Shown: in pieces, positions 1 through 47,391 of the stretch | Numbering within the stretch: the first letter of the stretch is position 1 | How the letters are laid out: each line of letters opens with the position of its first letter | Source: a virus | Virus record (IMG/VR): IMGVR_UViG_3300034069_000585 | Span: 1-47,391 of that record | Length of the DNA stretch: 47,391 nt | Strand: one strand, 5' to 3' | Notes under the pieces: generated by a model | Told to the model about the DNA's origin: nothing | The model's database searches: none | What the model saw: the letters and a program-made list of their open reading frames with translations, nothing else | Program-made: the position numbers and the translations under genes

Positions 1-141
1 ACCTCCCAATCCCGCGACGTGATCGCAAGCCGGCGCTGTTGCAGCGTCGAGAACACGGTATCGTCGGACAGAAGCTGCTCGTACAGCTTCAAGCCCTCCG
101 CGCCCTTGAGCAACATCGGATCGTCGTTCTGCGCCAGCGCG
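1..141. repeat. terminal overlap copy A, identical to 47251-47391; marks circular closure of a 47,250-bp unit genome
   Basis: Compared base by base. acctcccaatcccgcgacgtgatcgcaagc...gttctgcgccagcgcg occurs at both window ends in the same orientation. Confidence 0.95.
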
Positions 142-335
142 TCCATCCAATAGGACGGCAGGAACGACAGCGCATCGGGCCGCGACTGCATCTGCGCCAG
201 CGTCGGCGTTGCGTCGTCGTCGGACGGTGAGCCGGCCTTCGTCGGCACCGGGAAGCCGACCACGTTGCTTGCCAAGAACTCCGTCCCGCGCGCGCTGCTG
301 CGGCGGCCGGTGCGATACTGGTCGGGAGAAGCCAT
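1..335 (-). CDS. portal protein, N-terminal 111 codons; the gene crosses the circular junction and continues at 47250->45438
   Basis: ATG at 335-333 shares one base with the terL stop (TGATG). The frame is open to base 1 and in phase with ORF 45438..47366 (the Met at 47366 equals position 116). N-terminus reads MASPDQYRTGRRSSARGTEF... Confidence 0.8.
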   Translation of the reverse strand, partial: MASPDQYRTGRRSSARGTEFLASNVVGFPVPTKAGSPSDDDATPTLAQMQSRPDALSFLPSYWMDALAQNDDPMLLKGAEGLKLYEQLLSDDTVFSTLQQRRLAITSRDWE

Positions 336-1729
336 CAGAACGCGAACCCCTGCGATGTTGAGCCGATAGAGCCGAAGCCCGCGCCGCCATTATCGCGCGT
401 GTCGGGTTCCCTGTCACGCTCCACCACGCCGAGCGTTTCGCGGCGGCCGATGCTGGCATGACTGAACCCGCCTGACCCGCTCTTGCGCACCGCCTCCAAG
501 CCGTAGCGCAGCGCGTCGATGACGTGGTTGTCCTTGTCGGCGAGGATCGGCAGAACCTTCTTCGTCTTCTCGTCCACCTTGTAGCTGTACGTCCGCATCT
601 CGGCCGCCGCATGGATACAGCGCGGGTGTATCGCCACGTCATACGACTTGAGGAAGTCGACGCCATCTTCGACCGATCCAGCCCCCTTGATGGCCGGCTC
701 AATGCGAAAGCCCCGCGCCTTCATATACGCGATCAGCTCGGGTCGCGCGCCGTCTGCTACGATCGGCCATGTCGTCGCGCCAGGGATGCCCCGATACAGC
801 AGCGGGTTGGGCCATCGCACCGGTTCCGAGGCATCCGTGCCGCCGAATAGGGCCGGCGTGTTGTCGATGGTGCAGCCAATTTGATACGCTTCGAAATCAA
901 CGAACAGCACATCGCCATCTGGATCGGCCACCGCCTCGCCGCGCACCCATCGGCCCATGAAGCATCGCACCAGCACAGTCGGATCGACGGCGAAGCCCCA
1001 GTCCGCCCCGAACCGGAAGATGGCGTCGGCTGGCGTCTCGAAATTGACCACTGACCAGTTGCGAAACACGCGCGCCTCGCTGTTCTGCTGATATTGCCCG
1101 AGCCATATGTGCGCGTGTTTGTCGGGGTCGCGGCGCTTGTCGCGCTCCATATCCTGCCGAAGTTCGGTCGGAAACCATGGGTTCTGATCATAATTGACGG
1201 TCAGGTGCAGGCAGAACGGATCGCCCTCCATTTCTCGCGACATGGCATCCACCGGATCGTCAGCCTCCAGCGGGTTCCATGTCAGCCAAATTTCCGATCC
1301 AGGCGTTCGGATCGTCGGCGTTACCGTGTCGATCGACGCTTGACTGACCGCCTGTGCTTCGTCCGCCCAAAAGCGGGTGATGCCCTCCATTGATCGCACC
1401 GACGCTGCACCGTTGCGCAAGCCGCCAAACATGAACAGCGATCCGGTGACTGTGTTGCGGATTTCGTTATCCGTGCTGTCGTACATGCCGCGCAGGCCAA
1501 GCCGGTCAATCTCGTCGTCGATCATGCGTTTCGACGAGTCGCGGATGCTCCGTTGCACCTCGCGCGCGCACAGGATGCGGTGCGGTTCCTGCGCGGCCTG
1601 AATGACCAAGGCGGTCGCGACAGAGCGGCTTTTCGCGCTGCCTCGACCGCCCTTGATGAACTTGTATCGGCGGGGGTGCCAAAGCGCCTCCGCCCATGCC
1701 GGCAGCTTCGCGTCAATCTTCGGCAGCAT
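335..1729 (-). CDS. terL: terminase large subunit (PBSX/Terminase_3-like)
   Basis: 464 aa. Walker A KGGRGSAKS, Walker B-like RFWADEAQ, and ILCAREVQRSIRDS typical of this terminase family. The ATG at 1729 overlaps the end of the small subunit gene. Confidence 0.9.
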   Translation of the reverse strand: MLPKIDAKLPAWAEALWHPRRYKFIKGGRGSAKSRSVATALVIQAAQEPHRILCAREVQRSIRDSSKRMIDDEIDRLGLRGMYDSTDNEIRNTVTGSLFMFGGLRNGAASVRSMEGITRFWADEAQAVSQASIDTVTPTIRTPGSEIWLTWNPLEADDPVDAMSREMEGDPFCLHLTVNYDQNPWFPTELRQDMERDKRRDPDKHAHIWLGQYQQNSEARVFRNWSVVNFETPADAIFRFGADWGFAVDPTVLVRCFMGRWVRGEAVADPDGDVLFVDFEAYQIGCTIDNTPALFGGTDASEPVRWPNPLLYRGIPGATTWPIVADGARPELIAYMKARGFRIEPAIKGAGSVEDGVDFLKSYDVAIHPRCIHAAAEMRTYSYKVDEKTKKVLPILADKDNHVIDALRYGLEAVRKSGSGGFSHASIGRRETLGVVERDREPDTRDNGGAGFGSIGSTSQGFAF

Positions 1730-9645: not shown

Positions 9646-10139
9646 GCGAGCATATCCGCCACGACGCGAGCGACGTAAGGGGTAAACGTGAACCACTCCC
9701 CCGCGCATCGTTCGACCGCTAGGATTTGATGATATTCACGCTCGAAATTTTCATTGCCGCGAACCGCGCCCATAAGGCGCATGGGCAGAGGATTGCCGGT
9801 CTGCAACGCCTTGAGGCGCGCGGCGGGCTGGTGTCGAGTATAGCCGATCTTTACGTGCGTTGTCGGATCACCAACCGCGATCACATAGACGAAGCCATGC
9901 AGCGGCCCGTAGCAATCTCGGCGATATTCTTCGTCTGGGGAAAGCGTAACAGGCTTGTCCCCGCGCACAGTGGCGGGTAGTTCAATCACGTCGATCGCCT
10001 CCATTCCAGGCGGTTGAATGGGCGGGCCGACGTTGGAAGCGTCGCCCGCCCGCCCCCTCATGCTCCCGAACAGATTATGGTGCAAGGTCACGCGGCTTTC
10101 CTTTCGAGGGCGTCGGCATAGTCCGCGACGCCGCGCCAT
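9642..10139 (-). CDS. T5orf172 / GIY-YIG-like domain protein
   Basis: GFVYVIAVGDPTTHVKIGYT...RLKALQTGNPLPMRL...EREYHQILAVERCAGEWF. The start is uncertain (10139, 10061 or 10004). Confidence 0.6.
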   Translation of the reverse strand: MARRRGLCRRPRKESRVTLHHNLFGSMRGRAGDASNVGPPIQPPGMEAIDVIELPATVRGDKPVTLSPDEEYRRDCYGPLHGFVYVIAVGDPTTHVKIGYTRHQPAARLKALQTGNPLPMRLMGAVRGNENFEREYHQILAVERCAGEWFTFTPYVARVVADMLA

Positions 10140-20976: not shown

Positions 20977-21576
20977 TCAGGACGTGGGCCATGTGCGCGC
21001 GTCGAAGATGGCCTTTTGCGCAGCGGGGGTCGTGGCGGCTCGCATCGTCCGTTTGAGCTTCTGCGCGCGGGCGGCGATCTTTTGTGTCAGCGCCGTCCGC
21101 TTCATCGCGTCCTCATAGCGGGTGATGACCGTTGGCAGGCTCTCGCCGGTTTCGTCGCTTTCCGCCAACGCCCAGGCGAACCGCTGCCGCGTCTCCGTGC
21201 TGGTCAGCGACGACAGGATTGATGCCACCAGCGTTGCCGACATGCTGCGGTAGTCCCGCACCTCGCGCGCCTTGTTCGCGTACTCGTATTTTATCTCCTG
21301 CCCGGTGGTAAGCAGCGGGCGCATCAGCATGGTTCGCTCGTCGTCGATCATGTCGAGCATGTTTTGCAGCACCTGCGCGGCCGTCGCGGTCGCCTGTGCC
21401 ATCGCCACGAACGCGCCGGTCGCACGATTATATTGCATCGTGCCGGGCGTGAAATTCGTGTTCGATAGCACCGTGCTTCCGCCGGGAGGCGTGTTCAGGG
21501 CAAGGTCGCGCTGATCGGACACGTCGACATAGCTGACGAGGATGTTGCTCGCGTCGAGCTGGGCATAGCGGGGCAT
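20977..21576 (-). CDS. tail-associated hypothetical protein (199 aa)
   Basis: TAATG overlap with the 900-aa gene. Possible fibre accessory or assembly role, judged by position only. Confidence 0.5.
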   Translation of the reverse strand: MPRYAQLDASNILVSYVDVSDQRDLALNTPPGGSTVLSNTNFTPGTMQYNRATGAFVAMAQATATAAQVLQNMLDMIDDERTMLMRPLLTTGQEIKYEYANKAREVRDYRSMSATLVASILSSLTSTETRQRFAWALAESDETGESLPTVITRYEDAMKRTALTQKIAARAQKLKRTMRAATTPAAQKAIFDARTWPTS

Positions 21577-27200: not shown

Positions 27201-27796
27201 AGCGCACCCTGCGCCGCCGCCAGTCCATTCGAGCCGAGTTCGACTTCCTTCGCGGCCTCGCCAGCCTTAAACAGGTTCTCGACGAATGGAGCCAACACCG
27301 CTGCGCCGACCGTCAGGGCGATGCCCCACGGGCCGGTCAGGAATGCGCCGACCTTGCCCAGCCGGCCGCCCATCTCGGATAGCGCGAAGCCAAGCTGCCC
27401 AGCCTGCTGCCCAAAGGCCCGCGCGATCGATGTCCCGCCGGCCACCTGCAACCCGAAGTCGCCGAACTGCTGCCCGACGTTGCGGATCGCGTATTGCTGG
27501 CGGTTGGCGGAGGCCGTGACATCGTTGCTGGCCTTGCTGAACCCGGCGAGCGTTGCCTTGGCGCTGGCGAACCGGGCTTCGGCTGTCGCAAGGCCAGCGG
27601 TGGCGCGTAGCTGCGCCTCAGCGCTCTTGCCGACCGCCTCCGCCTGCTTGGTATGCGCGATGTCGAGGCTGGTCGCGGCGGCGGCTAGACGCTTCTCCGC
27701 CGCCTCCAGTTTAAGGAGCGCGGCTTCGCCTTCGGACGCCCCCTTGACCATACCGGAAGCGTCGGCGGTGATGCGGGCGGAAAGGTCGAAGGCCAT
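24290..27796 (-). CDS. tape measure protein (1168 aa)
   Basis: Size, A/G/L-rich helical N-terminal two thirds, glycine-rich hydrophobic segments (GGALGSFGGPIGSAIGGVLGSVVGGLF), and its position after the G/G-T chaperones. Confidence 0.85.
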   Translation of the reverse strand: MAFDLSARITADASGMVKGASEGEAALLKLEAAEKRLAAAATSLDIAHTKQAEAVGKSAEAQLRATAGLATAEARFASAKATLAGFSKASNDVTASANRQQYAIRNVGQQFGDFGLQVAGGTSIARAFGQQAGQLGFALSEMGGRLGKVGAFLTGPWGIALTVGAAVLAPFVENLFKAGEAAKEVELGSNGLAAAQGALGQIFDLTTGKIKSQNAELAASAELMRVNARLAGINLRTQAAQAQLNADKTFDAAGRQSVTDRLTAAGQGAAAGSLAGRARAGGVGAFLGGAFGAAQGLVSGTERGGTNAKNIGRVVQGIKSGTIKPEDAIAAAERLDFTGTGVDRQSFLEGVRDFASAPALREIAALADKSLREGELASGLRQTGRTKKPPKPKSTASRDEFGRDAADRLASIREQFDTTPPVIANVNKQLRQLDDLIDDLGRRKPPNFKQLIDDANALKPLIENNLTKPFRDYLKAQDEQLAVQRLTSAGRIDEANALRVVQQLQAQMGSLTDQQKDSVLATVQAMRAQQRELDVLREKNAKYLEALGGIKGVVEDATQAFVRGDLGQLLKSPGKLLDAFQTLQGRKLFDSIFGDVFRELEDQVNGTSVVKDASERMADAVKVAADQTRVTGEAVANFKPPVDDATAALGGFTVALNGAASAVTGGGAAGGGSLASLLAGYRGPTGPSAQSGIDPGTGDIVVVGRRGGGSAGGALTSGSLFERALNGIGSKVAGAFTNPENAKRIGASFGQYGGKAIAGAATGAATANIAAPLVKALGLKTSNTGAAIGGALGSFGGPIGSAIGGVLGSVVGGLFKRDKQASSTLNFADGIASAGAATGYGREAKNNANALGGGLADSLNQIAAQLGGGLGTANVSIGYRPGHKAGAYRVDTTGRGKLTGVQAFDTQEEAQNAALRDAILDGAITGLSDAMQRAVRGSSDVNKAVSEALGVKALETRLRGLNGTLAGIFDTEANSAKERLRLAKAYGLDVAAVERDNVETRTKLIEDTLKSRIGGLSSFLDALKFGDLAEGSPVERLAALSRQIATVQADAEAGKDGAADQLANLLAQKVALSRDSFGTAGGQYSGDRAGAQTAAERVIEMERQRVNEAAGVTTAAQAATTAAVNETNDLIAIQNAKIDTLIAAVTSLGGFSGATPNYGSVLRTASSL

Positions 27797-32154: not shown

Positions 32155-33150
32155 TCACGCGGCCGGCGCGACCACGTTGCGAAACAGATAGCCCGCATAC
32201 GGGGCGACGCTGCGCTCGACAACGCTTTCGCCGGCCAGCACCTTGACGCCGCCATATAGGCCCATCGTACCAGATGCGAACTCCTCCTCCGACGAGACGT
32301 AATCGTTCCACTGGAAGGTCGCCAGAAAAGCCGGCGACCGCGAACCCTCGCCGCTTTCGAGCGACGTGACGCCATCGGACGCGACGCCATCCTGATAGTG
32401 CATGGCGAAGCTGTCCGACCAGATGTTGCCGGTCGTCAGCGTCTGCCCGCGCTTGCTGGTCTGGTACAGCGTGTCGCCGACGATGATCTCGCGCAGGTTG
32501 AACAGGCGCGCGACGCGCTGGAGGTCGTTGTATTGGCCCGACTGGAGCGAGCCGCCCAGCGCAGCCGCGACCTTCGGGTGCCGCTCCAGAATGTCCGCGA
32601 CACGACGCGAGCAGACGCCGACGTTCGGACGGATCAGCATCTTGGCCTGTGCGTCGCGCACGTCGGCGACCGGATCGCTGGTGGTGAAGTTCGACCAGCC
32701 CTGCGCGATATCACGCGTATAGTCGGCCAGATAGGAGCCCGCCGACATCGTGAGCGTCGCAACCCGGATTTCGCGGCCGAGCTGAATTTGATCGATGACG
32801 GCGCGCGCGGCACCAGCGCGAAGGTCAAACGGCAGGCCTTGCGCTTCCGCTTCCTTGAGGTCGCGATAGGGCACCGGCTCGCGGATCGCATAGTCGCGGG
32901 TGTAGTCGCTCTGGAGCGTCCACCCATGCGTCATCTCGTTCGCCTGACCCAGTCGATCAATCTGGGTGTCATAGACGGTGAACGCCTCGCCGATGTTCGA
33001 CGAATACCAGCGAAAGTGCTGACTGGGGACGCGGCGACGCGGCGCAACCCGATCGGCGATATAGCCACGGTTGGCCCGGTTGATGCCGGCATAGTCGATC
33101 GCCACGCCCGAGAGCGGAACGGAGATGATGGGGAAATTGGCGCGGGCCAT
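32155..33150 (-). CDS. major capsid protein (HK97-fold, lambda gpE-like by pattern)
   Basis: 331 aa. It sits after the protease/scaffold and DUF2190 genes, the usual order for this capsid type. Confidence 0.8.
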   Translation of the reverse strand: MARANFPIISVPLSGVAIDYAGINRANRGYIADRVAPRRRVPSQHFRWYSSNIGEAFTVYDTQIDRLGQANEMTHGWTLQSDYTRDYAIREPVPYRDLKEAEAQGLPFDLRAGAARAVIDQIQLGREIRVATLTMSAGSYLADYTRDIAQGWSNFTTSDPVADVRDAQAKMLIRPNVGVCSRRVADILERHPKVAAALGGSLQSGQYNDLQRVARLFNLREIIVGDTLYQTSKRGQTLTTGNIWSDSFAMHYQDGVASDGVTSLESGEGSRSPAFLATFQWNDYVSSEEEFASGTMGLYGGVKVLAGESVVERSVAPYAGYLFRNVVAPAA

Positions 33151-33583: not shown

Positions 33584-34036
33584 TCAGCCGGCGAGTTCGG
33601 CGGCGGCGGCGTCGAACGACAGGTTCTTTTCCTTCGCCAGCGCGTGCGCGGCGGCATTGAACGCGGCCGGATCGGTGAACGTCTGCTTGCCGGCGTCGCC
33701 TGCGTCACCCGCCGGGGCGGTGCGGTCGCCGAGCGGCACGCGCTTGTCGAGGCCGGCGATGAACGTCAGCAGCTTCGACGCGGCGGTCGCCTTGCTGGCC
33801 TTGTCGCCCGCGCCGAAGGTCAGCTCGTCGGCTTCCGGGTCCAGCGCGTTGAACGCGGTCTTGAGGTCGGCGGCCTCGGCGGGCAGAACCTTGCCCTCGC
33901 GCACCAGATTGTCGATCGCGGCATTGTTGCCGGCTTCGAACTGCGAGCGAATGCGGGTGGCGGCGCGCTGCTCGCGCTCGGCGAGGTCGGCTACGCGGGC
34001 ATCGAACGCGAGTTCTTCGGGCGTCTTGTCGGCCAT
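33584..34036 (-). CDS. nested in-frame scaffold protein (Mu Z / lambda Nu3 analogue), candidate
   Basis: An internal ATG at 34036 is preceded by AAGGAG with 7-nt spacing, in the same frame as the protease. It would encode MADKTPEELAFDARVADLAERE... (150 aa). Confidence 0.45.
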   Translation of the reverse strand: MADKTPEELAFDARVADLAEREQRAATRIRSQFEAGNNAAIDNLVREGKVLPAEAADLKTAFNALDPEADELTFGAGDKASKATAASKLLTFIAGLDKRVPLGDRTAPAGDAGDAGKQTFTDPAAFNAAAHALAKEKNLSFDAAAAELAG

Positions 34037-34555
34037 GGTCGGTTGCTCCTTTGCTTCGAAAACCGTGTGGGTCGTGGTCGGCTGTTCGGTGGCGTACACG
34101 ATTGCGTCGGCCGGCGCACCCTCCGCGACAAGGCCGCCGTCAGCGGTATATGCCAGCCGCGATCCCAACTCGCTTTGCAGCGATGCCATGCCGGGGATGC
34201 CGGGCGCGGCACCGCCAAGCAAGCCGACGTGGCGCGGCGACCACTTGCCAGGGCGCGGGTTCGCTTCGTGGTCGGGGTGGAAGAACGCCATGCTGCGGTC
34301 CAGCCATTCACCCGACTTGATGCCCTCGATCGCCTTTTCGGTCAGCGTCGCCACCTTGGCGAACAGGCGATTGCCCTCCGCGCGAAAGCCGCCGATGCCG
34401 CCCGCCGCCGGGGTGTCGCTGGTCGGATGGCCGAAGCACAGGGGCACCGGCTTATCGGCGCACTCATACGTCGCCACCTCCGCCAACTGCTCGGCGGTGA
34501 TGCCACGGGCGGCCGGGGTGCCGGCGCGAAATACCTCAATCTCGGTTTCGATCAT
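33584..34555 (-). CDS. prohead protease/scaffold (Mu gpI family)
   Basis: From ATG 34555 (MIETEIEVFRAG...). PLCFGHPTSD...GGIGGFRAEGNRLFAKVATLTEKAIEGIKSGEWLDRSMAF fits the Mu I family. The C-terminal half is helical and scaffold-like. Confidence 0.7.
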   Translation of the reverse strand: MIETEIEVFRAGTPAARGITAEQLAEVATYECADKPVPLCFGHPTSDTPAAGGIGGFRAEGNRLFAKVATLTEKAIEGIKSGEWLDRSMAFFHPDHEANPRPGKWSPRHVGLLGGAAPGIPGMASLQSELGSRLAYTADGGLVAEGAPADAIVYATEQPTTTHTVFEAKEQPTMADKTPEELAFDARVADLAEREQRAATRIRSQFEAGNNAAIDNLVREGKVLPAEAADLKTAFNALDPEADELTFGAGDKASKATAASKLLTFIAGLDKRVPLGDRTAPAGDAGDAGKQTFTDPAAFNAAAHALAKEKNLSFDAAAAELAG

Positions 34556-34636
34556 GGCCGCAGGATTTACCCCGCGCGCGATAGGGCGGAAAGGGTACAT
34601 TATTGGAGGTGATTGCGACATTGATGTGAAAGGGGC

Positions 34637-34664
34637 TTGCAATGGTCGTGATAGGGTGTATGTA
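34637..34664 (+). promoter_or_regulatory. candidate sigma70-like promoter of the plus-strand micro-operon
   Basis: TTGCAA (34637-34642), 16 nt, TATGTA (34659-34664), about 30 nt upstream of GGAGAA-ATG at 34693. Confidence 0.4.
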
Positions 34665-34692
34665 GAGCGGGACAACCCATGGAGAAGCGCCC

Positions 34693-37548: not shown

Positions 37549-40500
37549 TCATGCGGTGATCGCCACGCTGTCCTGATAGGCCAGGGCCTTGGTATAGCCC
37601 TTGTCGCCGACCAGAACGAGATTGACGCCCAGCTTCTTGTTCACGTTCGCGCTGGTGAGCGCCAGCGACCATCCCGATTGCCCCGAGATAGGCACGCCGT
37701 CCAACGTCCACTGAATTTGAAACGATCGCGTGTTGAAGGCCGGTGGCACGTCCAGTGTGACGGTCTGCCCGGCGGCGCGGGTGCCAAGGATGCGGATGCT
37801 CGCGCCGTAGCGAATATATGGCGGGAACACTCCATCGTAGGCGTCGAGATAGGCGTCCATCTTCGGCGCTTCGGATCGTGGCTGGCCCAGATATTCAATC
37901 AGCCCCCATGCACCGGATTGGCTCGTCGCGATCATCGAAATCCAGTGGTAGTGATAGAAGGGCACGGTGCGGCCGAACCCATGAATGCGCTGAAACTCGC
38001 CGAGATAGTAGCCGTACAGCGCCTTCATCTCGGGCGAACGCTGGCGGCGGCGGGCGTTGGTGATATCGCTGTCGAGCGCATGCTGCCCGACTTCGTATGT
38101 CTCGACGGCGATGCCCTTCGGCGTGGCGATCTGCTTGTGCGCGGCGACCACTTCCATCTGCGCGTTGATGTTCTTGTACGCGCCGTCGACATAGACCGCA
38201 TCGTCGGGCTGGTTGAAGGTCGGGTTGAAATAGGGCGCGATGAACACGGCGCTGATCACGTCCTTCGTCATGCCAGGATAGTTCAGTATCTGCGCCGTCA
38301 CCGAGGGGTTCGCGGCCATTGAGCCCATGCCGGTCCGCACCTTAGCGCCGAACGTCTGCTTGAGCGCTGCGAAGATCGGGCGGGCGCGGTAGCACGACTC
38401 GTCGATCGATTGTGCCAGAATGTTCGTCTCGGTCGTGCCGCGATAGACGGCCCACGCGCCGTACCAAAGCGAGCCGGGAAACGCCAAGTTGAAGGCTTCG
38501 TTGCCATGCTCGGCGCGGCATACCTTGCCGGTTACGTCGGTCACGATCTGGATAGCACGGGTGGCGAAATCTGGCGTGCAGTTGACGTGCAGATTGATAT
38601 ACGGCTCAAGGTTCGCCCGCTTGAACAGGTCCGCTAAGTCTTCGAACGTCACCCGCGCCGGGTCAGCGTCGACGCCATCGCGCAGGTTCGTCTTCGCCAT
38701 TGGCGGGACGGTATCTACCGTAGCCAAGGGAGGAGTGGGGATCGGTCGCGGTTCGTAATCGCCAATATCGAAAAGCTCGACAGTCTCCGGCGTCGACTTA
38801 AGCAAGTTGATGACGCTTTGCACCGTTCCGGCCGATGGCGGCGTGATGATGACGTTCTGATCATTGATAGTGATTGAGCCGCTACCCGACGCAGGCAGGA
38901 CCGTCACGCTCCAGTTGTTGCCCTTGCTGCCGTACCAGTGACGATTGGGCAGGTATTTGGCGATGAACGTATGGGAGGCATACGGCCTGATGTTGAGCGC
39001 AAGCCGCCGCGTGGAATTGCTCGTCGGGATAAAAATGCGGGCGTTACGCGGGAACAGGCCGAGCGGCTTCTGACGGCGGTTCTTCCATTCGAGAATTCCG
39101 TTATCGAAGCCGGTGTAGTAGGAGTTGACGCCCAGCAGGTCCATGAACCGCGTGAACTTCCATTGTGACACGGCAGTCACATAGGCCGGGTGCCACGTCG
39201 TCTGATCGATGTACGGGCCGCCACGGGTGGCAATCTCGGAACACCAGATGTTGCGAACCGGGTTGGCGGGGCTCCACGTCGATTTCGGTACGCTGACATA
39301 GAGCGCGTCGGCGTTCGCCTTGAGGTTGAACTCGATCGAACTTCCGTTGCGGACCAGATTGCTGGTGTTGCGCGCCAGATCGGAAATGGTGACGCTTGCC
39401 GGGTCGCCGTCCCAGCTCAAGCGGACAAGGCAATCTTCGGCAACCGGGTCCATCTTGATCAAGTACGTGTTCACGCCATCCTCGAATGAGAGGATGTCGC
39501 CGGTAAGCGTATCGATGTAGGGCGCGTTTGCGGCATCGTACCCCCCCCTTCCATACCCATCGCCGCGCCAATAGGTCGCCGCGAGGTTGTTGTAGGGCCG
39601 AGGATGGCCGGCGACGTTGATGCCCCAGGTCGTCTTGTCGGTGACGACATATTCGGTCGGCAGGGCGACGGCGCTATTCCCGCGCTGGACGATCGTCGCG
39701 GGAAGCGTCGTGCCGGCGAACTGCGTCGACACGGCGGCATCGGGGATCGTGATCTTGGCCCGACCGGGGCGCAGGTTTTCGGTAAGGCTGCACGCCACGA
39801 TTGAGCCATCCGGCAGGCGCGCGTCCCACCCCTGGATGCTTTGCCCGACTGCATTCGAATAGCCGATATGGATGTCGGCTCCGCGCCCTGCGAAGTGCGG
39901 CTCCACCGCCAGGATGCGGAGCGGAGCGCCGCCGCTGGAGGAGAACGTCGTCTTGATGTTGTCCGTACCGCCGCCCTTCACGTAGCGCGCGAAGCGGCCC
40001 GGTCCGCCGGGGAACATGGTGGCGACGACTTCGGCGACGATGCGGTGAACCTGCACGTCGTTGATGAAAAACAGGATCACTCCTTCATCATCGCGGTATT
40101 GCGCGGTGAACCGATCCTGTTTGGTCAGAGCCTTGCCGTAATTCATCACCGCGTTCGCACCGGGCAGCAACGTCCACTTGCCCCCGACCGGGTAATAGAA
40201 CTGCTTGTATTGGCTGTTGCCGATGTTGTCGACGCGCAGGCCGAACGAGGGTGTGACGCTGCCTACGTCGCAATACATGTACAGGGTGCCGGCATGGTTC
40301 AGCGCCCCGGTGTCGCCGTCGACAGCCGGCGCGGTGGCAAACGTGCCGAAGATGCTTTCCAGGTCCTGCCAACCGGTATCGGTGACGACTTGCGGGCCGA
40401 CCGTGCGGACGATCGAGGGATTGGAAATGACGGTGACAGGGGCCGGCACGCCCGCCTCAAGGGCGGTGACGCGCTTCTCGTCCGCTGTGATTTGCGCTTC

Positions 40501-40590
40501 CTGCGCCGCGATGATGGCCTCTGCGGCATCAAGTGCCGCCTTCCATGCGGCCTCGGCGGCGGTCAGGGTCGCGGAAAGATCGAGTGCCAT
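37549..40590 (-). CDS. large fibre/spike-like protein with a probable clan GH-A glycoside hydrolase domain (1013 aa)
   Basis: N-terminal coiled coil (...EKRVTALEAGVP). The C-terminal third has EHGNEAFN (acid/base-like NE) and VETYEVGQH (nucleophile-like E) in a TIM-barrel-like spacing. Confidence 0.6.
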   Translation of the reverse strand: MALDLSATLTAAEAAWKAALDAAEAIIAAQEAQITADEKRVTALEAGVPAPVTVISNPSIVRTVGPQVVTDTGWQDLESIFGTFATAPAVDGDTGALNHAGTLYMYCDVGSVTPSFGLRVDNIGNSQYKQFYYPVGGKWTLLPGANAVMNYGKALTKQDRFTAQYRDDEGVILFFINDVQVHRIVAEVVATMFPGGPGRFARYVKGGGTDNIKTTFSSSGGAPLRILAVEPHFAGRGADIHIGYSNAVGQSIQGWDARLPDGSIVACSLTENLRPGRAKITIPDAAVSTQFAGTTLPATIVQRGNSAVALPTEYVVTDKTTWGINVAGHPRPYNNLAATYWRGDGYGRGGYDAANAPYIDTLTGDILSFEDGVNTYLIKMDPVAEDCLVRLSWDGDPASVTISDLARNTSNLVRNGSSIEFNLKANADALYVSVPKSTWSPANPVRNIWCSEIATRGGPYIDQTTWHPAYVTAVSQWKFTRFMDLLGVNSYYTGFDNGILEWKNRRQKPLGLFPRNARIFIPTSNSTRRLALNIRPYASHTFIAKYLPNRHWYGSKGNNWSVTVLPASGSGSITINDQNVIITPPSAGTVQSVINLLKSTPETVELFDIGDYEPRPIPTPPLATVDTVPPMAKTNLRDGVDADPARVTFEDLADLFKRANLEPYINLHVNCTPDFATRAIQIVTDVTGKVCRAEHGNEAFNLAFPGSLWYGAWAVYRGTTETNILAQSIDESCYRARPIFAALKQTFGAKVRTGMGSMAANPSVTAQILNYPGMTKDVISAVFIAPYFNPTFNQPDDAVYVDGAYKNINAQMEVVAAHKQIATPKGIAVETYEVGQHALDSDITNARRRQRSPEMKALYGYYLGEFQRIHGFGRTVPFYHYHWISMIATSQSGAWGLIEYLGQPRSEAPKMDAYLDAYDGVFPPYIRYGASIRILGTRAAGQTVTLDVPPAFNTRSFQIQWTLDGVPISGQSGWSLALTSANVNKKLGVNLVLVGDKGYTKALAYQDSVAITA

Positions 40591-40637: not shown

Positions 40638-43382
40638 TCAGCGCTCGTAACAACCTGCCGCACCAGTGCCGTCAGCAAGGCGGGCTTTGCCGTCCAGATC
40701 ATAGCTGAATACAGCGCCGGATACCGTGTCGGTGAACGCCTGATTGAACGCGGCGAAGACTGCCGGCACGCGGCTCGAAAGCGTGTTGGTGGTGCTGGCA
40801 AGGTGATAGTCGCCGCCGCCCGGATAGGTGGCCGCATCGTTGCGCAGCGCCTGATAATTGACGAACAGTGCCATGATATCCGAGAACGTCGACGACACCT
40901 GATACGTCGAATAGTCCGGCTCCCAAGCCATACCGAGATAGCTTGCCGCCAGATTGGGCGCGCTGCCGCTTAGCGACCCGAACAGCGAGATATTCGACCG
41001 CAATCCGACATGATAGCCGTAGCGCCAGTTGCCCGTATTGCCGGGATAGCCGGGGCTGAAACTATCGGTCTTGAGATTGTAATTCCCATAGACCGAGCCG
41101 ATGGACACGCCTTCCTTCGGCACGCCACGCATCGCCGACGTATCCGCGTACATGCGGCTACCACGGTTGCCGACGAATGTATTGTGCATGTCCAGCAGCT
41201 CGTAAACCGATGCCGTGGTGCCGTCTGCCGCCATGTTGAAAGCGACGATGCCGGAACCATTGCCGCGTGGTTCGCCAAGATTGTTAGCGATGACGGTGGG
41301 ACGGGTCTTGGACAGCAGGCTGAGCGCCGGTCCGACCTGATAGCGCCACTCGTTGGCGACCCAGAAATAGCCATCGGTGTATGCCGGCATCGACGTAGTA
41401 GCGTCGGTTGGCGTCGACGACCGATTAGCCACGAAGATTTGCGCGGCAGACGGATCACCTCCCTGCGGCTGCACATTGCCTAGCGCCAGCGCCATGCCCT
41501 GCACCGTCGTGCCGCCCGAAACCATGTTCAGGACGTTGCCGAGGGTCGAAGTGACGTTGCTGCGATACTGGATGCTCCAGCCCCGGATGCCTTCACCGCC
41601 AGCGATGTTGAACCCGGCGGATGGGGCCTCATAGATGCAGCTTTCCAAGCTAAGCATGGACGCATTCGACGCGGCGTCGCCATCTTGGAAAGTCGTCTGG
41701 TTTGTACCGCCCGGCTTGATCGTCAGGCCGACAGCGCGGGTCATAGACGGGATATTGATCACCGTTCCCTTGCCGGTCCACTTCACGGGTGCCGTGACGG
41801 CAGGGTCAGCCAAGATTTCGCACCATGTTGCGCCCGGAGCAGAGGCATTCGAGATGTTGGCAGTCGGCCCGTACTCGATCGTGGTCCCGCTGTTGTTGCC
41901 CAGGTAGATGCGGCCGCCGGCATAGTCGTCATGACCGCGCGCAGCGTTATAGGCCCGGATGCCTGCGAATGCGGCTTGGACCGTCGAGTAGGGGGTCGAC
42001 TTCGCAGCCGCCAAGGTCGACGCGACAGCGCCCGTGCCGGTCGCGTTGGCATCCAGATACGCTACGCCGCTGTAGGTGCCTGCCTTGTCGTTGAAAAACC
42101 GCAAGCGGGTATGCGGGGTGGCGTCCACGATACGGGTCAGGCCCGTGTAGAGGCCGTCGACCGACAGGTCGTACACCGCGCTCGCGTCACCGATCCACGG
42201 ATAGACCTTGGCATTGGCATAACACAATTCGCCCTGCGCCAGCGCCGTGACAGGGATCGTCGCCTTGAACGCCTCGACCTTCGGCGCGCCGGTGGCCGTC
42301 ACGAAAGCGGAAAGGCTGGTAGCAACCGCTGTCCGCTCCGCCGACACATTGCCGGTCGTGTCCCGCGCCTGGAACTTGATGCCGGCCACTTGCCGGCCAC
42401 CCATAGCGTGGCGATGAAAGGCGATCATCTCGACCGGGAAGTCGCCGGTTGCCCGCAGATGCTGGTGGTTGAGCCAAGTTGCGGTCGGCTTGCGATAGGC
42501 ATAGGTGGACGCGTTGGTCAGCGTCGATGCCGACGACGCATTCGATACGGCGCTACCGTTGGTATAGAAGCCCGCCGCAACCTTTGCGGACACGATGGTA
42601 GTGCCGGCGTAGATCACATCGGCCAGAGCGATCAGCACCACGAAATCGCTGCCGGATTGCGTGATGAAACGGCCATTCACGTCGGTCGATGCCGTCTTGT
42701 ACTGCTTGCGCATCAAGGCGCGGCCCTTGATCTTGCGATAGACGGTGGTCGCCACGATCGCACCGCCGCTGTCGCGGAAGCCGGGGTCGCTGACCAGCAA
42801 CTCCAGCTTTTGACAGTTGAAGAACCCGTCGCTGGTGTTGTCCGCAGCGGGTGCGGTCATGCCCTTGATCGTCACTTCGGCGACCCAGCCGTTGCCGTCA
42901 ATGCCGACCGCAGGAGAGCCGCTGTCTGGGTCCATCTGGGTAGCGTCACGGACGCGGAAAGCGGTCATGTCGCCAGCGGCCGACGAAACCGACGAGATGA
43001 CAACGCTAGTCGCCATGGTGGACGCGCTGCCGCTGCTGTCCGTTACGGTGATGACAAGGCCGCTCATGGTGCCTGCGACAGTCGGCGTGCCGGTGATCGC
43101 GCCCGTGGTGGTGTTGAACGACAGGCCGCCGAGCAGCGTACCCGACGACAGCGTGAAAGCCTTGGTGCCCGAACCCTTCGCCACGGTCGGCGTGAAGCTG
43201 TAGGCGGTGCCGACCTGTCCGGTCGTCGGCGGCGTGCCGGTGATCGTCACCTTGTTCGCATTTTCCAGCGCGGAGATGCGGGCGAGCGCTGCGTTCAGGT
43301 CGTTGCGCAGCGAGGAGGTGGAAGCGCGCGCCGTGGGATCGCCGCCGATCGTGTCAATGATGGTGCTGGTAATTTCGGTCAT
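40638..43382 (-). CDS. large tailspike-like protein: N-terminal coiled coil, He_PIG-type Ig domain, beta-helix-like body (914 aa)
   Basis: ITGTPPTTGQVGTAYSFTPTV...GLSFNTTTGAITGTPTVAG is the putative-Ig (He_PIG) motif. The remainder is G/N/S/T-rich and repetitive, as in parallel beta-helix depolymerases. Confidence 0.65.
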   Translation of the reverse strand: MTEITSTIIDTIGGDPTARASTSSLRNDLNAALARISALENANKVTITGTPPTTGQVGTAYSFTPTVAKGSGTKAFTLSSGTLLGGLSFNTTTGAITGTPTVAGTMSGLVITVTDSSGSASTMATSVVISSVSSAAGDMTAFRVRDATQMDPDSGSPAVGIDGNGWVAEVTIKGMTAPAADNTSDGFFNCQKLELLVSDPGFRDSGGAIVATTVYRKIKGRALMRKQYKTASTDVNGRFITQSGSDFVVLIALADVIYAGTTIVSAKVAAGFYTNGSAVSNASSASTLTNASTYAYRKPTATWLNHQHLRATGDFPVEMIAFHRHAMGGRQVAGIKFQARDTTGNVSAERTAVATSLSAFVTATGAPKVEAFKATIPVTALAQGELCYANAKVYPWIGDASAVYDLSVDGLYTGLTRIVDATPHTRLRFFNDKAGTYSGVAYLDANATGTGAVASTLAAAKSTPYSTVQAAFAGIRAYNAARGHDDYAGGRIYLGNNSGTTIEYGPTANISNASAPGATWCEILADPAVTAPVKWTGKGTVINIPSMTRAVGLTIKPGGTNQTTFQDGDAASNASMLSLESCIYEAPSAGFNIAGGEGIRGWSIQYRSNVTSTLGNVLNMVSGGTTVQGMALALGNVQPQGGDPSAAQIFVANRSSTPTDATTSMPAYTDGYFWVANEWRYQVGPALSLLSKTRPTVIANNLGEPRGNGSGIVAFNMAADGTTASVYELLDMHNTFVGNRGSRMYADTSAMRGVPKEGVSIGSVYGNYNLKTDSFSPGYPGNTGNWRYGYHVGLRSNISLFGSLSGSAPNLAASYLGMAWEPDYSTYQVSSTFSDIMALFVNYQALRNDAATYPGGGDYHLASTTNTLSSRVPAVFAAFNQAFTDTVSGAVFSYDLDGKARLADGTGAAGCYER

Positions 43383-43943: not shown

Positions 43944-44810
43944 CTATCGGCGCACGACTTGCCGCACGTTACGACCGATCTCGTCCAGCGTCCTGCCGCT
44001 GATCACGGCGTCCCATATGTCGCGGCCGGCGCGCTCGGTCTGGATCGGGTTGACCGGGGGCAGGCCGGGAAGGCGGGGCTGCGGCGTGCCGTCCGATCCG
44101 GTCGGCCGGTTCGTCTCCTCGACCATCGCCGCCAGTTGCTGCCCGATCGGCGCGGACGGCGGGGCGAACACGGGCGGGCCAAGTCGCTCGATCCGCCATG
44201 CGAGTTCATCTTCCGACGTGATGCCGTCGCGGTAGCGGGCGAGCTGAGATCGCGACATCTGCCCGACGCTGCACCGGCAACGGAAGCCGAGCGGGGGCCA
44301 GTAGGTGCGCCAGAACGGATGGCTGACCGGCAACACGATGCCGTCCCAGGCGCGGTGATCTTCCTCGCTCTTCGGGGGGTGCCGCACGCGGCTATCGCCG
44401 ACCGTGAACGCGCGCAGATACGGATACAGGCCCTCGCTTGCCTGGACGTGGTTCCAGCGCCCCGCCGCGCGCGCCAGCCGCAGGTTCGTGTCGTAGATCA
44501 GCCGCACCCGATTGCCGATCTTGCCCTCGTCGCCGCCAAGCCAACCCTTTTCCTTGAGGATCGGCATGACCAGCTTCGCGAAGTCCTGCTCGCTCCCGCT
44601 GCGCTCAACCACATCGACCATGGCGTAATACAGGTCGTCGGCGATGTCGGTCCCGGCCGTCTGCGCGGCGGTGAAGGCGCGGGCATATTCGTCGCTGCCG
44701 ATTTCGTCGAACATGCCGATCGCGCGCGGTTCCTTGCCGAGCAGCCATTCGAGGATGTCGGGTGCCGCCAGTTGCAGCGGATAGAGCGTGGCGGGTGATC
44801 GCGTGGGCAT
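43944..44810 (-). CDS. head morphogenesis protein, MuF / SPP1 gp7 family
   Basis: 288 aa. RLIYDTNLRLARAAGRWNH...HRAWDGIVLPVSHPFWRTYWPPLGFRCRCSV is the Phage_Mu_F core. Confidence 0.85.
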   Translation of the reverse strand: MPTRSPATLYPLQLAAPDILEWLLGKEPRAIGMFDEIGSDEYARAFTAAQTAGTDIADDLYYAMVDVVERSGSEQDFAKLVMPILKEKGWLGGDEGKIGNRVRLIYDTNLRLARAAGRWNHVQASEGLYPYLRAFTVGDSRVRHPPKSEEDHRAWDGIVLPVSHPFWRTYWPPLGFRCRCSVGQMSRSQLARYRDGITSEDELAWRIERLGPPVFAPPSAPIGQQLAAMVEETNRPTGSDGTPQPRLPGLPPVNPIQTERAGRDIWDAVISGRTLDEIGRNVRQVVRR

Positions 44811-44827
44811 GGCCCCAGATACAGCAA

Positions 44828-44853
44828 CGGCCGCCCTATCGCTAGGGCGGCCG
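44828..44853 (-). terminator. 11-bp GC-rich hairpin with GNRA loop directly 3' of the tRNA-like element
   Basis: Minus strand reads CGGCCGCCCTA-GCGA-TAGGGCGGCCG then TTGCTGT. It ends 17 nt before the MuF ATG. Confidence 0.45.
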
Positions 44854-44857
44854 GTGG

Positions 44858-44935
44858 TGGCGGGCCGGTCAGGACTCGAACCTGCATTTCCGGGAGTGGC
44901 CCCGGCGTCCTTATACCGTTTGAACGACGCGACCC
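44858..44935 (-). ncRNA. tRNA-like element or degenerate tRNA (non-canonical anticodon arm)
   Basis: Minus strand: GGGTCGC...GCAGGTTCGAGTCCTGA CCGGCCC G CCA. It has a perfect T-loop GGTTCGAGTCC, a 6/7 acceptor stem, a 4-bp D stem with GG in the loop and an encoded CCA. The anticodon arm is 16 nt (5-bp stem, 6-nt loop) and there are mismatches at 7:66 and 49:65. Confidence 0.4.
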
Positions 44936-45022
44936 ATTTACCCGCTGCCCTGCAATCGCATCACCGATCACCACAGGGCAGCGAGTTGCGCCGTGTTATG
45001 GGGGCGGCGTCCCCCGGTCAAG

Positions 45023-45172
45023 TCAGCAGGTTCGGTTTTCACCGGGTCGGGGCGTGCAATCGTCCTGATTGGGCGGGGAATGCGTCGGCGTCGGCGCGGG
45101 CTGGGGCCGCTTGTCGTCGCAGGCAGCGACCATCGAAACGGCGAGAATGAGGAGCGCAAAGGGGAGGCGCAT
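45023..45172 (-). CDS. small proline-rich lipoprotein (49 aa precursor), moron-like
   Basis: AGGAGA, 6 nt, ATG at 45172. MRLPFALLILAVSMVAAC has a signal peptide with lipobox VAAC. The mature 32 aa contain 9 Pro and 2 further Cys. Confidence 0.6.
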   Translation of the reverse strand: MRLPFALLILAVSMVAACDDKRPQPAPTPTHSPPNQDDCTPRPGENRTC

Positions 45173-45232
45173 CGGTCTGTCTCCTGTCGCGGGGTGCGAC
45201 GCGGTGACGATGCCTTGCCGGGATGCGATAGG

Positions 45233-45270
45233 CAAGCAAAAGGCCCCGCCATAAGGGGATGGCGAGGCCT
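45233..45270 (-). terminator. intrinsic terminator T2 downstream of the portal gene
   Basis: Minus strand reads AGGCC.CGCCAT-loop-ATGGCG.GGCCT then TTTTGCTT. Confidence 0.55.
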
Positions 45271-45352
45271 TCCGCGAGGAACACCGGGGAGGTGTTGGCA
45301 ATGGTATGCGCTCGGCGTTATGAGCCGTCAAGCGCCGTCAGAACCTGCCGGA

Positions 45353-45390
45353 CAAGAGAAAGGCGGCACCCCCTGCAAGGGATGCCGCCT
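45353..45390 (-). terminator. intrinsic terminator T1, about 50 nt after the portal stop
   Basis: Minus strand reads AGGCGGCA-(inner CCC/GGG)-TGCCGCCT then TTCTCTTG. Confidence 0.55.
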
Positions 45391-45437
45391 CAACTGGCGT
45401 TCGAAAGATGCGCGCAGCCCCTATGCGCCGGCTGCGA

Positions 45438-47391
45438 TCAGCCGTCAACCCGATCTTCCAGCCCGATCGCCGCCGCGCCGCGCTCCGCCAGCAAGGGCAG
45501 TGCCAGCGCCTTCGCCAGCGCGGACGGATCGAACCGCTCGACCGCCTCCAGCAACGCGATCCGCGCGCCTTCGATGGTTGTCACGCCCTGCATGTTGCCG
45601 CGCATCGCGTTGCCGATGGCTTCGAACAGCGGGGATGCGTCACCGGCCGACGCCTCAATCAGGCGGTCGATCGCGTCCTGATCTTCGGCGGAGAAGGCGT
45701 GGAACTCGTCGCCGGCAGGCTTGTCGATTGCCTCGAATATCTCAGGGCCGAACTTGAGTGCGCCGATGAACGGCTCGACCTTGGAAAGATCGAAGTCGGC
45801 TGGCACGTCGTAGCTGATCGTGATGTGCGGCTTGTAATCGGGATAGTCCGACGACGCGCCGCGCTCAATCATACCTTCGTGACGATACCGCAGCGATGTG
45901 TCGGTGAAGCGCAGCACGATCGCATCGCCGAACCGCTCAACGAAGCGCGGCCCGCCCTCGGCCACTTCCAGCGCCGCCCAATCCCAGCCCTCGCCGGCCA
46001 TGCCAAACCAATCGACCGCCGCTTTAGAATAGAGAACGGTGACATGCAGATCATCGGCGGGGACGGTTGGCGTCAGGCCCTGCGCCTTTGCCCAAGCGAT
46101 AAGGGGACCAGGATTGAGCAGTTTGCGATGCACGTAGAGCGGTGCAAACGAACTACCGCCTTGCGCCGCGAACTCAGCGATCTGGCGTTCGCTACGGTCG
46201 GGCCGCTGCCCGGCCTTGGCGATCACAAGCGCCGCATCCCGCTTCGCCTGTTCCTCCGTCGAGACGCGATCGACCTCGTAGCCATCGCCGTACACCTCCG
46301 CGACGCTTTCCTCAGTCCGCTTGATGCCGATGCCGTTCAGCTTCACGTCGCGCTCGGCCACCGTGGACATATCCTCCGCGTCGTCCAGCACGCGATAGAC
46401 GGTCGGCGGGGCCACGTCCGGCCCATGGTTCCAGAGCGTGACCCACCGCGCGAAGGTCCGGTTGATCGCCTCGGAAATCAGATCGCTGTCGGCCTTGACG
46501 ATTTCCGCCTTGACGCTGGCGTGTTCGGTCGCCTGATTGTTGTTCAGGCCCGACGACACGCCCTTGGTTGTGCCGGCCTGCCCCAGCACGACGCGCATGG
46601 TGGCCTCCTCGGCCCACTTGACCATTTCGTCATACGACGCGGCGCTCGATCCGCTGCGCGTCGCCTCCATGATCTTGATGCGCTCGTTCTTGATTGTGCC
46701 CTCCGGCAACAGCACGGCGCTATCCCGGCCGACCGCGACCGCCGCCTGTAGCAACTCGGCCTTGCGCTTGCCGTCGCCCTTCTCCGCCTCCGTGAACTCG
46801 ATCGCGACAGTCGGTTGCCCCAGCTTCTCAAGGAACAGGGACCAGAACTTGAGGCCAGCGCGCTTGAAGAACACGGGCCAATAGAGCCAATGCCCCAGCC
46901 CCAGGCCATAGAAGGCGAAATCGTGCGTGCCGCCGGTGCGAACGGTCAGGAACTTGTTCGGCAGCAGCGTTTCGCCCGACAGCCCACCGCCGATGCGCGA
47001 TACCATCCGCAGCTCGCCCTTGAGCGTGAAGCCGAACCAGCGGCGATCGGGGATCACCACGTCGTCCAGCCACACGATCGGACGGCCGTCGTGATCCTTT
47101 GTCGTCCAAATCGCCTCCGCCACCGCGTAGCCGAAGAACACGGCGTAATGCAGCAGGCCGGTGATGCGGTCGAACCCCACCTGCTTGAGCATGTCGCGGA
47201 ACTGCTCGGCCGCCAACACGGAGCGCGGATCATCCTTGTCGCCCGGCGCTACCTCCCAATCCCGCGACGTGATCGCAAGCCGGCGCTGTTGCAGCGTCGA
47301 GAACACGGTATCGTCGGACAGAAGCTGCTCGTACAGCTTCAAGCCCTCCGCGCCCTTGAGCAACATCGGATCGTCGTTCTGCGCCAGCGCG
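45438..47391 (-). CDS. portal protein (Mu gp29/DUF935-like) fused in frame to a C-terminal 2H phosphoesterase domain; main part of the junction-spanning gene (715 codons in total)
   Basis: The frame is open from the window end to the stop at 45438. The N-terminal ~400 aa look portal-like (position after terL, size, DUF935-like pattern). The C-terminal part is described as a separate feature. Confidence 0.8.
   Translation of the reverse strand, partial: ALAQNDDPMLLKGAEGLKLYEQLLSDDTVFSTLQQRRLAITSRDWEVAPGDKDDPRSVLAAEQFRDMLKQVGFDRITGLLHYAVFFGYAVAEAIWTTKDHDGRPIVWLDDVVIPDRRWFGFTLKGELRMVSRIGGGLSGETLLPNKFLTVRTGGTHDFAFYGLGLGHWLYWPVFFKRAGLKFWSLFLEKLGQPTVAIEFTEAEKGDGKRKAELLQAAVAVGRDSAVLLPEGTIKNERIKIMEATRSGSSAASYDEMVKWAEEATMRVVLGQAGTTKGVSSGLNNNQATEHASVKAEIVKADSDLISEAINRTFARWVTLWNHGPDVAPPTVYRVLDDAEDMSTVAERDVKLNGIGIKRTEESVAEVYGDGYEVDRVSTEEQAKRDAALVIAKAGQRPDRSERQIAEFAAQGGSSFAPLYVHRKLLNPGPLIAWAKAQGLTPTVPADDLHVTVLYSKAAVDWFGMAGEGWDWAALEVAEGGPRFVERFGDAIVLRFTDTSLRYRHEGMIERGASSDYPDYKPHITISYDVPADFDLSKVEPFIGALKFGPEIFEAIDKPAGDEFHAFSAEDQDAIDRLIEASAGDASPLFEAIGNAMRGNMQGVTTIEGARIALLEAVERFDPSALAKALALPLLAERGAAAIGLEDRVDG
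45720..46148 (-). other. 2H phosphoesterase (LigT / 2',5' RNA ligase / Acb1-type) domain inside the portal ORF
   Basis: Two H-x-T-x motifs after hydrophobic strands: ADDLHVTVLYSK (His codon 46044-46046) and YKPHITISYD (His codon 45825-45827), 73 residues apart. It begins with an APLYVHRKL strand. Confidence 0.65.
47251..47391. repeat. terminal overlap copy B, identical to 1-141
   Basis: Same 141 bases as the window start. The portal reading frame runs straight through it. Confidence 0.95.

Follow-up and report, generated by a model that had tools for sequence, protein, structure and literature searches.

Why should the portal protein of a phage carry an enzyme domain in frame, and what would such a domain do from its place in the head? 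The question is raised by the portal gene of IMG/VR virus record IMGVR_UViG_3300034069_000585, which we analysed over positions 1 to 47,391 (this whole stretch of 47,391 nucleotides is hereafter the window). A first-pass annotation, made from the letters alone, had described an overlong DUF935 portal with a 2H phosphoesterase domain of LigT/Acb1 type. Sequence, profile and fold evidence together support the description of the protein as a Mu/DUF935-type portal with an in-frame Acb1-type 2H phosphoesterase, placed between the crown of the portal and its native tail.

An Acb1-family domain in a Mu-type portal

The protein is encoded by a single open reading frame (ORF) on the minus strand that crosses the ends of the record. 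Sequence comparison showed window positions 1-141 and 47251-47391 to be an exact 141-bp terminal direct repeat, so that the window is a circular contig with 47,250 unique bp and 141 bp of assembly overlap, probably from an assembly with k = 141 (the contig of a close relative is named k141_..., which fits a k-mer overlap). The ORF starts at an ATG at 335-333 that overlaps the terminase TGA (TGATG), runs to position 1 (1..335, the N-terminal ~112 residues) and continues from 47250 to the stop at 45438-45440 (main part 45438..47391, of which 45438-47250 is unique and 47251-47391 repeats 1-141); the 715-codon frame (715 aa) first traced across the junction, from 335 to 1 and then from 47250 to 45438, thus stands as claimed. 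An ORF caller that does not wrap around the circle cuts the same portal to 642 aa.

The portal matches Portal_Mu/DUF935 in Pfam (PF06074, E 4e-78), and its core of residues ~83-433 (46287..47339, minus strand), which comprises clip, stem, wing and crown, aligns with residues 65-353 of Mu gp29 in hhalign (probability 99.2%); by sequence the portal also matches PDB entries 9KHX and 8RKA, and an NCBIfam search of the portal returned nothing. The enzyme domain, which we refer to as the cassette, occupies residues 480-620 (45726..46148, minus strand) and scores 121 bits against PF23474 Acb1 (cut-off 27, E 4.2e-35, profile positions 2-140 of 144). The claim of a 2H domain of LigT or Acb1 type is upheld and can be narrowed: because the LigT/2'-5' RNA ligase profile PF13563 reaches only 14.3 bits, below its cut-off of 27, profile scores assign the domain to Acb1 rather than to LigT. 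Sequence searches with the domain found the Acb1 of Erwinia phage FBB1 (7T26, E 2e-10) and residues 470-611 of the solved portal of cyanophage Pam3 (8HDS, E 9e-24), and profile searches found the same two (E 9e-16 for 7T26 and 7e-43 for the Pam3 portal).

The predicted fold is in line with this assignment. We built an AlphaFold2 model of residues 470-715 as well as a near-full-length model, and the predicted local distance difference test (pLDDT) score exceeded 93 across the 2H domain. The best Foldseek matches of the domain model in the PDB were Acb1 7T27/7T26 (E 5e-9, template modelling (TM) score 0.66-0.70), followed by a Burkholderia phage 'Acb1' phosphodiesterase and then by Escherichia coli LigT (E 5e-5), and among the predicted viral structures of BFVD the best matches were Acb1 proteins (TM 0.84-0.86).

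The twin HxTx motifs that had first drawn attention to the domain are present as described, 73 residues apart (HVTV from residue 514, HITI from residue 587), and align to the FBB1 motifs as an HxT/HxT tetrad (H514-V-T516 and H587-I-T589). The predicted catalytic residues are thus H514 (46044-46046), T516 (46038-46040), H587 (45825-45827) and T589 (45819-45821), all on the minus strand. H514, T516 and H587 are invariant in a 22-sequence alignment of the domain, with T589 at least 90% conserved; a 56-sequence alignment keeps H587 without exception and H514, T516 and T589 at 90% or more each. Structural work on Acb1 defined a catalytic tetrad (H44, T46, H113, T115), base-stacking residues (Y12, W74, F107, W147), an adenine-reading residue (E141) and a C-terminal lid (PMC9117128). 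The equivalent of Y12, Y484, is invariant in the 22-sequence alignment, and Y581 aligns with FBB1 Y108 (F107 in the numbering of Hobbs 2022); indels leave it ambiguous which residues correspond to W74, E141 and W147, with E615/F617 (in a GPEIFE motif) and F631 as candidates. Taken with the selection estimates given below, sequence and model suggest a conserved and apparently catalytically competent enzyme of the Acb1 family.

Portal fusions are the usual form of this Acb1 subfamily. When 1.84 billion representative proteins were searched for the domain in a full HMMER scan, there were 2111 matches at E <=1e-3, 1380 at E <=1e-10 and 192 at E <=1e-30, and only 4 of the 150 best matches were shorter than 200 aa. 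Among the 75 nearest representatives, 55 were fusions to portals of three families by Pfam (Phage_portal_3 in 49, Portal_Mu in 4, Phage_portal in 2), with Peptidase_S78_2 as the partner in 3 and MuF in 1; the nearest representatives also include polyvalent proteins of 1.4-1.8 kaa (thousand amino acids) in which the same subfamily occurs with NUDIX, ADP-ribosyltransferase (ART) and PBECR3 nuclease domains. Cultured phages with Phage_portal_3 and a C-terminal Acb1 are Pseudomonas phiPSA1, the Rhizobium Kleczkowskavirus group and Synechococcus Ssp-JY40, and the Pam3 portal carries an Acb1 domain by sequence match; no cultured phage in the collection covers at least 80% of the window portal or has the Mu-type arrangement. 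The genuine S78_2-Acb1 fusions are the three metagenomic representatives just mentioned. An apparent further case, a prohead protease-Acb1 fusion in roseophage DSS3P8, was rejected: gp129 (L005, 2510-2962) is a free-standing Acb1 of 150 aa, 35% identical to the window domain, and its label 'prohead protease, HK97 family' is probably wrong.

The architecture therefore belongs to an already noted and very common class. Phage 2H domains fused to MuF or portal proteins were described computationally by Iyer et al. (2022), who proposed that they are probably packaged and injected against SMODS/CBASS (cyclic-oligonucleotide-based anti-phage signalling system), cyclic-mononucleotide and CRISPR signals (PMC9503650); Hobbs 2022 makes no mention of portals (PMC9117128). 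The first-pass statement that the architecture was uncharacterised accordingly holds for experiment, since our literature search on portal-embedded Acb1 found no experimental study, but not for recognition: that computational note, the only one found, precedes it, and the domain already has its Pfam label. What the present analysis adds is the insertion inside the removable extension of a Mu-type portal, the recurrent acquisition and loss of the cassette and its replacement by other alleles, and its reciprocal swap with an Acb2/Tad1-like gene.

Insertion topology and turnover of the cassette

The first-pass annotation had described the domain as an addition behind a linker, followed by a helical tail of ~90 aa. 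Alignment with relatives that are 51-63% identical and lack PF23474 shows where it sits: the upstream ...AEFxA and a helical tail of ~85 residues (FSAxDExAIDRL...) are both kept, and the Acb1 domain is a clean indel of ~150 residues between conserved flanks. The alignment thus identifies the domain as an internal insertion between the portal crown and the native tail, not as a C-terminal fusion. The helices of the tail are borne out (residues 633-706), but they belong to the portal itself, and the excess length of ~200 aa applies only to the comparison with Mu gp29; against domain-less relatives it is about 150-160 aa.

In the near-full-length model the portal core and crown are followed by a helix and a low-confidence linker, by Acb1 (residues 480-619) with a second low-confidence linker, and by four tail helices. 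The stretch between core and cassette (46149..46286, minus strand) holds the post-crown helix (residues 443-457), a linker (residues 457-466, GQRPDRSERQ) with pLDDT <50 throughout, and the AEFAA that alignment shows to be conserved ahead of the cassette. The second flexible linker (residues 621-632, DKPAGDEFHAFS; 45690..45725, minus strand) contains a conserved F-S-A motif and falls below pLDDT 50 at residues 624-629, and the conserved C-terminal tail (residues 633-715; 45441..45689, minus strand) completes the protein. The post-crown segment of a portal projects from the crown into the capsid interior. A short [A/D/E]-F-[A/S/T]-[A/E] motif after a Pro/Ala-rich linker is kept in all portals of the window family and is present on both sides of the cassette (AEFAA at residues 470-474, EFHAFSA at 627-633); processing, docking and a scar left by recombination are all conceivable explanations for it.

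The tail also offers a connection to Mu, in which the C-terminus of gpH (gp29) is removed by the head protease (gpH to H*). A profile of the window-family tail scored 17.7 bits against the C-terminus of Mu gp29 (envelope 427-511), compared with a maximum of 9.6 bits in 2000 composition-matched shuffles, and the Mu gp29 stretch 'ALSAEDIPQEDDIDRM' resembles 'AFSAEDQDAIDRL', which suggests a weak homology between the two tails. The last 124 residues of gp29 are missing from the cryo-electron microscopy structure of the Mu virion, which its authors read as confirming cleavage by protease I (PMC11915804). If the tails are homologous, the cassette would, by analogy, lie inside the segment that Mu discards at maturation.

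The same combination of PF06074 and PF23474 occurs in ~100 clusters (defined at 90% identity), which are 39-96% identical and mostly come from contigs of 41-51 kb, and ~15 close relatives lack the domain. A fusion made by a frameshift or by faulty assembly, which the first-pass annotation had wished to see excluded, is ruled out by this architecture, shared as it is by independent clusters from other assemblies. When the portal cores are placed on a neighbour-joining tree, portals without the domain are scattered over about nine positions between those that have it, one domain-bearing pair is nested in an otherwise domain-less outgroup, and the tail is kept in every sequence. One pair gives the same impression at close range: on either side of the cassette, portal P0009 (729 aa) has 96-97% identity to the cassette-less portal P0057 (569 aa), and the contigs of the two (L014 with the cassette, L015 without) are ~95% identical in DNA, with 510 nt in one where the other has 36 nt. 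These comparisons indicate that the cassette is facultative and mobile, having been repeatedly gained, lost and allelically replaced.

Replacement is best seen between the window and its relative L020. The portal core is 98% identical in amino acids between the two (synonymous divergence, dS, 0.20; ratio of nonsynonymous to synonymous divergence, dN/dS, 0.05) and the tail is 97% identical (dS 0.24, dN/dS 0.10), whereas the cassette between them is only 67% identical (dS 0.85, dN/dS 0.27). Such a mosaic indicates recent replacement of the cassette by a divergent allele through recombination, and by its dN/dS the cassette stays under purifying selection.

What stands in for the cassette in L015 bears on function. 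Directly after the portal stop, this cassette-less contig (Logan SRR13512917) encodes an 81-aa protein of the Acb2/Tad1-hairpin type (4712-4957; PF24729, E 1.4e-17, 64 bits, cut-off 27), and cassette-bearing L014 has no Acb2/Tad1-like gene at the equivalent site (5183-5196). Cyclic-nucleotide hydrolase and sponge thus alternate within about 300 bp, in one clean pair only. The either/or pattern rests on that one pair because the small genes in the portal-MuF gap of domain-less L016, L017 and L018 have no Pfam match and no similarity to the Acb2-like protein of L015. Because a ~95%-identical cassette-less phage has an Acb2/Tad1-like gene at the same spot, an anti-signalling role of the domain gains support, and this single exchange is, as far as sequence comparison goes, the strongest indirect evidence for it. 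The junction between portal and MuF has the look of a hot spot for genes that counter cyclic-nucleotide signalling.

Proposed packaging and counter-defence, and the alternatives

We hypothesize, with a probability of about 0.55, that the portal domain is a head-packaged cyclic-oligonucleotide nuclease that counters CBASS-type signalling and is freed by a protease and delivered at infection. The ~150-aa cassette would sit in a flexible, capsid-interior stretch between portal crown and tail, and, being built into the portal, the enzyme would enter each procapsid in twelve copies without a targeting signal. The head maturation protease would trim the C-terminal extension of the portal as in Mu and so release Acb1 into the head interior, either alone or together with the tail; the freed enzyme would exit with the DNA at infection, or, at the least, portal-bound enzyme would be found in the cytoplasm late on. 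It would hydrolyse 3'-5' cyclic di- and trinucleotide immune signals (those of CBASS, possibly also cyclic triadenylate, cA3) by the metal-independent HxT/HxT mechanism, and once the signals were hydrolysed the effectors would never be switched on. Enzymatic activity, substrate, proteolytic release and ejection are the steps that we infer. The recurrent fusion of the subfamily to head-internal carriers (portals, the S78_2 protease and MuF) favours packaging, and a virion protein able to block CBASS is already on record (bioRxiv 2025.07.23.666291).

Several observations weigh against this hypothesis. Catalysis by the portal-embedded Acb1 is predicted from sequence and fold, and the lid and some of the base-stacking residues of FBB1/T4 Acb1 (W74, W147, E141) cannot be mapped with confidence, so that the substrate range may differ. 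A folded protein of 16-27 kDa would have to unfold to pass the tail, which we assume. The paper on the Pam3 portal describes standard portal domains only, and 8HDS is not among the Foldseek matches of the 2H model, from which we infer that the Acb1 domain is absent from the deposited coordinates through disorder or cleavage; the domain could accordingly be disordered, cleaved or lost from virions. The candidate processor of the portal C-terminus, a head maturation protease whose C-terminal half is helical and scaffold-like (33584..34675, minus strand), matches PHROG 976 (phrog_976, E 8e-47) but has no Pfam, PDB or NCBIfam match and no BLASTP similarity to Mu gpI, and its earlier label of 'gpI-type' is not borne out. 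A search for EF[AS]A in other head proteins gave a single match, in MuF (RAFTAA, residue 45), and none in the capsid protein, the protease/scaffold or the large proteins. Finally, the prohead protease can trigger CBASS late in infection (PMC12991175), and an enzyme delivered early would then not be needed.

Two routes to a free enzyme were considered and set aside. EF[AS]A as an established protease site is not borne out, the motif being nearly absent from the other head proteins, and it stays speculative in that role; a nested start that would give free Acb1 has a single candidate, the GTG at codon 431 with a poorly spaced Shine-Dalgarno-like sequence, which is not convincing.

Late activation is the basis of the main rival explanation, in which the fusion serves expression coupling only: Acb1 would act late in the producing cell as free or assembled portal, the fusion would guarantee its synthesis when CBASS is triggered, and the copies in the capsid would be incidental and undelivered. 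Activation of the CBASS CD-NTase (a nucleotidyltransferase of the cGAS/DncV type) in T4 infection comes at least 14 minutes post infection and is caused by the prohead protease (PMC12991175, 2026 preprint), free-standing Acb1 of the T4 type acts inside the infected cell (PMC9117128), and the Acb2/Tad1-like gene that substitutes for the cassette in L015 is a separate late gene, not a virion fusion. Late timing needs no in-frame fusion, however, and the fusion partners of the subfamily are nearly all head-internal carriers (portals of three families unrelated to one another, the S78 protease and MuF); moreover, the insertion lies at the capsid-interior end of the portal, in the segment that Mu removes. 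We therefore regard expression coupling as a genuine but rather doubtful explanation of the fusion.

RNA-end healing or another 2H role is less likely still, and we consider it improbable. Such an enzyme would act as a LigT-like 2',3'-cyclic or 2'-5' phosphodiesterase, repairing tRNA cut by anticodon nucleases or degrading, for example, an ADPR-derived signal, and it draws on the HxT/HxT chemistry common to 2H enzymes, on the significant structural match to E. coli LigT (at the E value of 5e-5 given above), on the name 'RNA ligase' carried by PHROG 755 and on the unclear conservation of the Acb1 lid and some base-contact residues. Against these stand the profile scores (14 bits for PF13563 with its cut-off of 27, 121 bits for Acb1), the first rank of Acb1 structures in both the PDB and the BFVD searches, the alternation of the cassette with a cyclic-nucleotide sponge gene, and the lack of an RNA ligase, polynucleotide kinase or Tpt1 among the window ORFs scanned. 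That the domain is an artefact of assembly or frameshift, or a decaying remnant with a structural role only, would be in keeping with the metagenomic source of the contig and is scarcely credible given ~100 independent clusters of the same architecture, catalytic residues that are invariant or nearly so, a dN/dS of 0.27 and a confident model; we regard an artefact as excluded.

Returning to packaging and delivery, one may ask how far the arrangement generalises. We offer as a tentative proposal, which we think more likely wrong than right, that the C-terminal extension of Mu-type portals is a general protease-released cargo slot inside the capsid, into which interchangeable counter-defence modules would be brought by recombination. 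The EF[AS]A motifs on either side of the Acb1 cassette would mark the processing sites that free exactly one enzyme per subunit, and ~12 pre-made nucleases per virion might be injected to disarm cyclic-oligonucleotide immunity before any phage gene is expressed.

Neighbouring genes and known systems

The portal lies in a head module in the order terminase large subunit, portal, MuF, all on the minus strand. The terminase large subunit (335..1729; PF04466, PF17288) is directly upstream of the portal, and the MuF-like minor head protein (43944..44810; PF04233, phrog_220) is downstream, beyond a variable portal-MuF gap (44811..45437, minus strand); the major capsid protein is encoded at 32155..33150 (minus strand; phrog_1005, E 4e-54). 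The gap holds an ORF of 49 aa for a putative lipoprotein (45023-45172, minus strand) with a lipoprotein signal (MRLPFALLILAVSMVAAC...), which is conserved in L020 (3809-3958), and an unrelated small lipoprotein is encoded at the equivalent portal-MuF position of L016 (3247-3408). These small lipoproteins could be superinfection-exclusion morons.

Two very large ORFs separate MuF from the protease and capsid genes (40638-43382, 914 aa, and 37549-40590, 1013 aa, both on the minus strand). Neither has a PHROG or NCBIfam match, and the sole Pfam match is one Ig-like He_PIG domain in the 914-aa ORF; their products could be internal virion or ejection proteins. Of two further large ORFs, that at 24290-27796 (1168 aa) has a sub-threshold Pfam match only, and that at 21576-24278 (900 aa) matches only PHROGs of unknown function. 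Elsewhere in the window, one of the two minus-strand ORFs at 10088-10786 and 11617-12288 matches phrog_887 'queuine tRNA-ribosyltransferase' (DpdA-like) and the other a fragment of a CcrM-like N6-adenine DNA methyltransferase; the DpdA-like match suggests 7-deazaguanine DNA modification, and both ORFs probably serve anti-restriction functions. On the plus strand, an ORF matching phrog_1376 (unknown function; 12607-13788) precedes one for an exonuclease VIII (RecE-like) protein (13799-14887), and the two may form a recombination module. Because prophage copies are present in Sphingomonas, Sphingobium and Rhizobiales genomes, in line with a G+C content of 64%, the evidence points to alphaproteobacterial hosts.

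To our knowledge, Acb1 has been described solely as a free enzyme that is synthesised within infected cells. Were the portal-borne form packaged and delivered, it would be the first virion-borne enzyme demonstrated to degrade second messengers of immunity, and the portal itself could act as a cargo carrier. The idea was proposed computationally in 2022 and specialists would not be surprised by it; what the window adds is anatomy and a test system rather than a new concept. Natural allele pairs (cassette present or absent, cassette or Acb2/Tad1-like gene, and divergent cassettes in portals that are 98% identical) make the idea directly testable in cultured relatives such as phiPSA1, the Rhizobium Kleczkowskaviruses and Pam3. 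When portals are annotated, an excess length of about 150 aa is reason to look for PF23474.

The closest enzymes are the Acb1 proteins of T4 (gene 57B) and Erwinia phage FBB1 (7T26/7T27; PMC9117128), the best structural matches, which share with the window domain PF23474, the 2H fold, the HxT/HxT tetrad and the tyrosine of an N-terminal LY(V). They are ~29-36% identical to it and are free proteins of ~150 aa, whereas the window domain forms part of a structural protein; it also has an additional loop rich in Trp (VDWFxMGxxW), 13 inserted residues ahead of GPEIFE, and a lid region (E141/W147) that is not confidently alignable. The closest architectures are the PF06381 Phage_portal_3-Acb1 fusions (Pam3 gp3 8HDS, phiPSA1 gp44, RHph_Y55, RHEph04-06 and Ssp-JY40), in which the same Acb1 subfamily, at 38-51% identity, likewise follows the crown behind a low-complexity linker; these differ in that the portal is of another family and the domain is at the very C-terminus without a tail, whereas the window has an internal insertion in a Mu-type portal. 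Mu gp29 (gpH) itself shares the homologous core, the order terminase-portal-MuF and a tail homology that is weak but above shuffles; it differs in having no enzyme domain, and the window protease has no detectable similarity to Mu gpI.

Enzymes and other effectors that are packaged in the head and injected include T4 Alt and IPI*, the P1 Dar proteins, MuF-fused toxins and polyvalent proteins. Iyer et al. (2022) also treat fusions of 2H, Nudix and ART domains to MuF, portal and protease (PMC9503650). By analogy, the window would follow the same logic, a counter-defence enzyme tethered to a head-internal protein, pre-made and delivered with the DNA, with the difference that its carrier is the portal itself, present in a fixed 12 copies, that release would need proteolysis and that delivery is proposed from topology and recurrent fusions. 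The Acb2/Tad1 sponges target the same class of immune signals as the Acb1 domain would, but they have an unrelated fold, sequester the signals rather than hydrolyse them, and are encoded by a separate gene rather than as a domain in frame with the portal.

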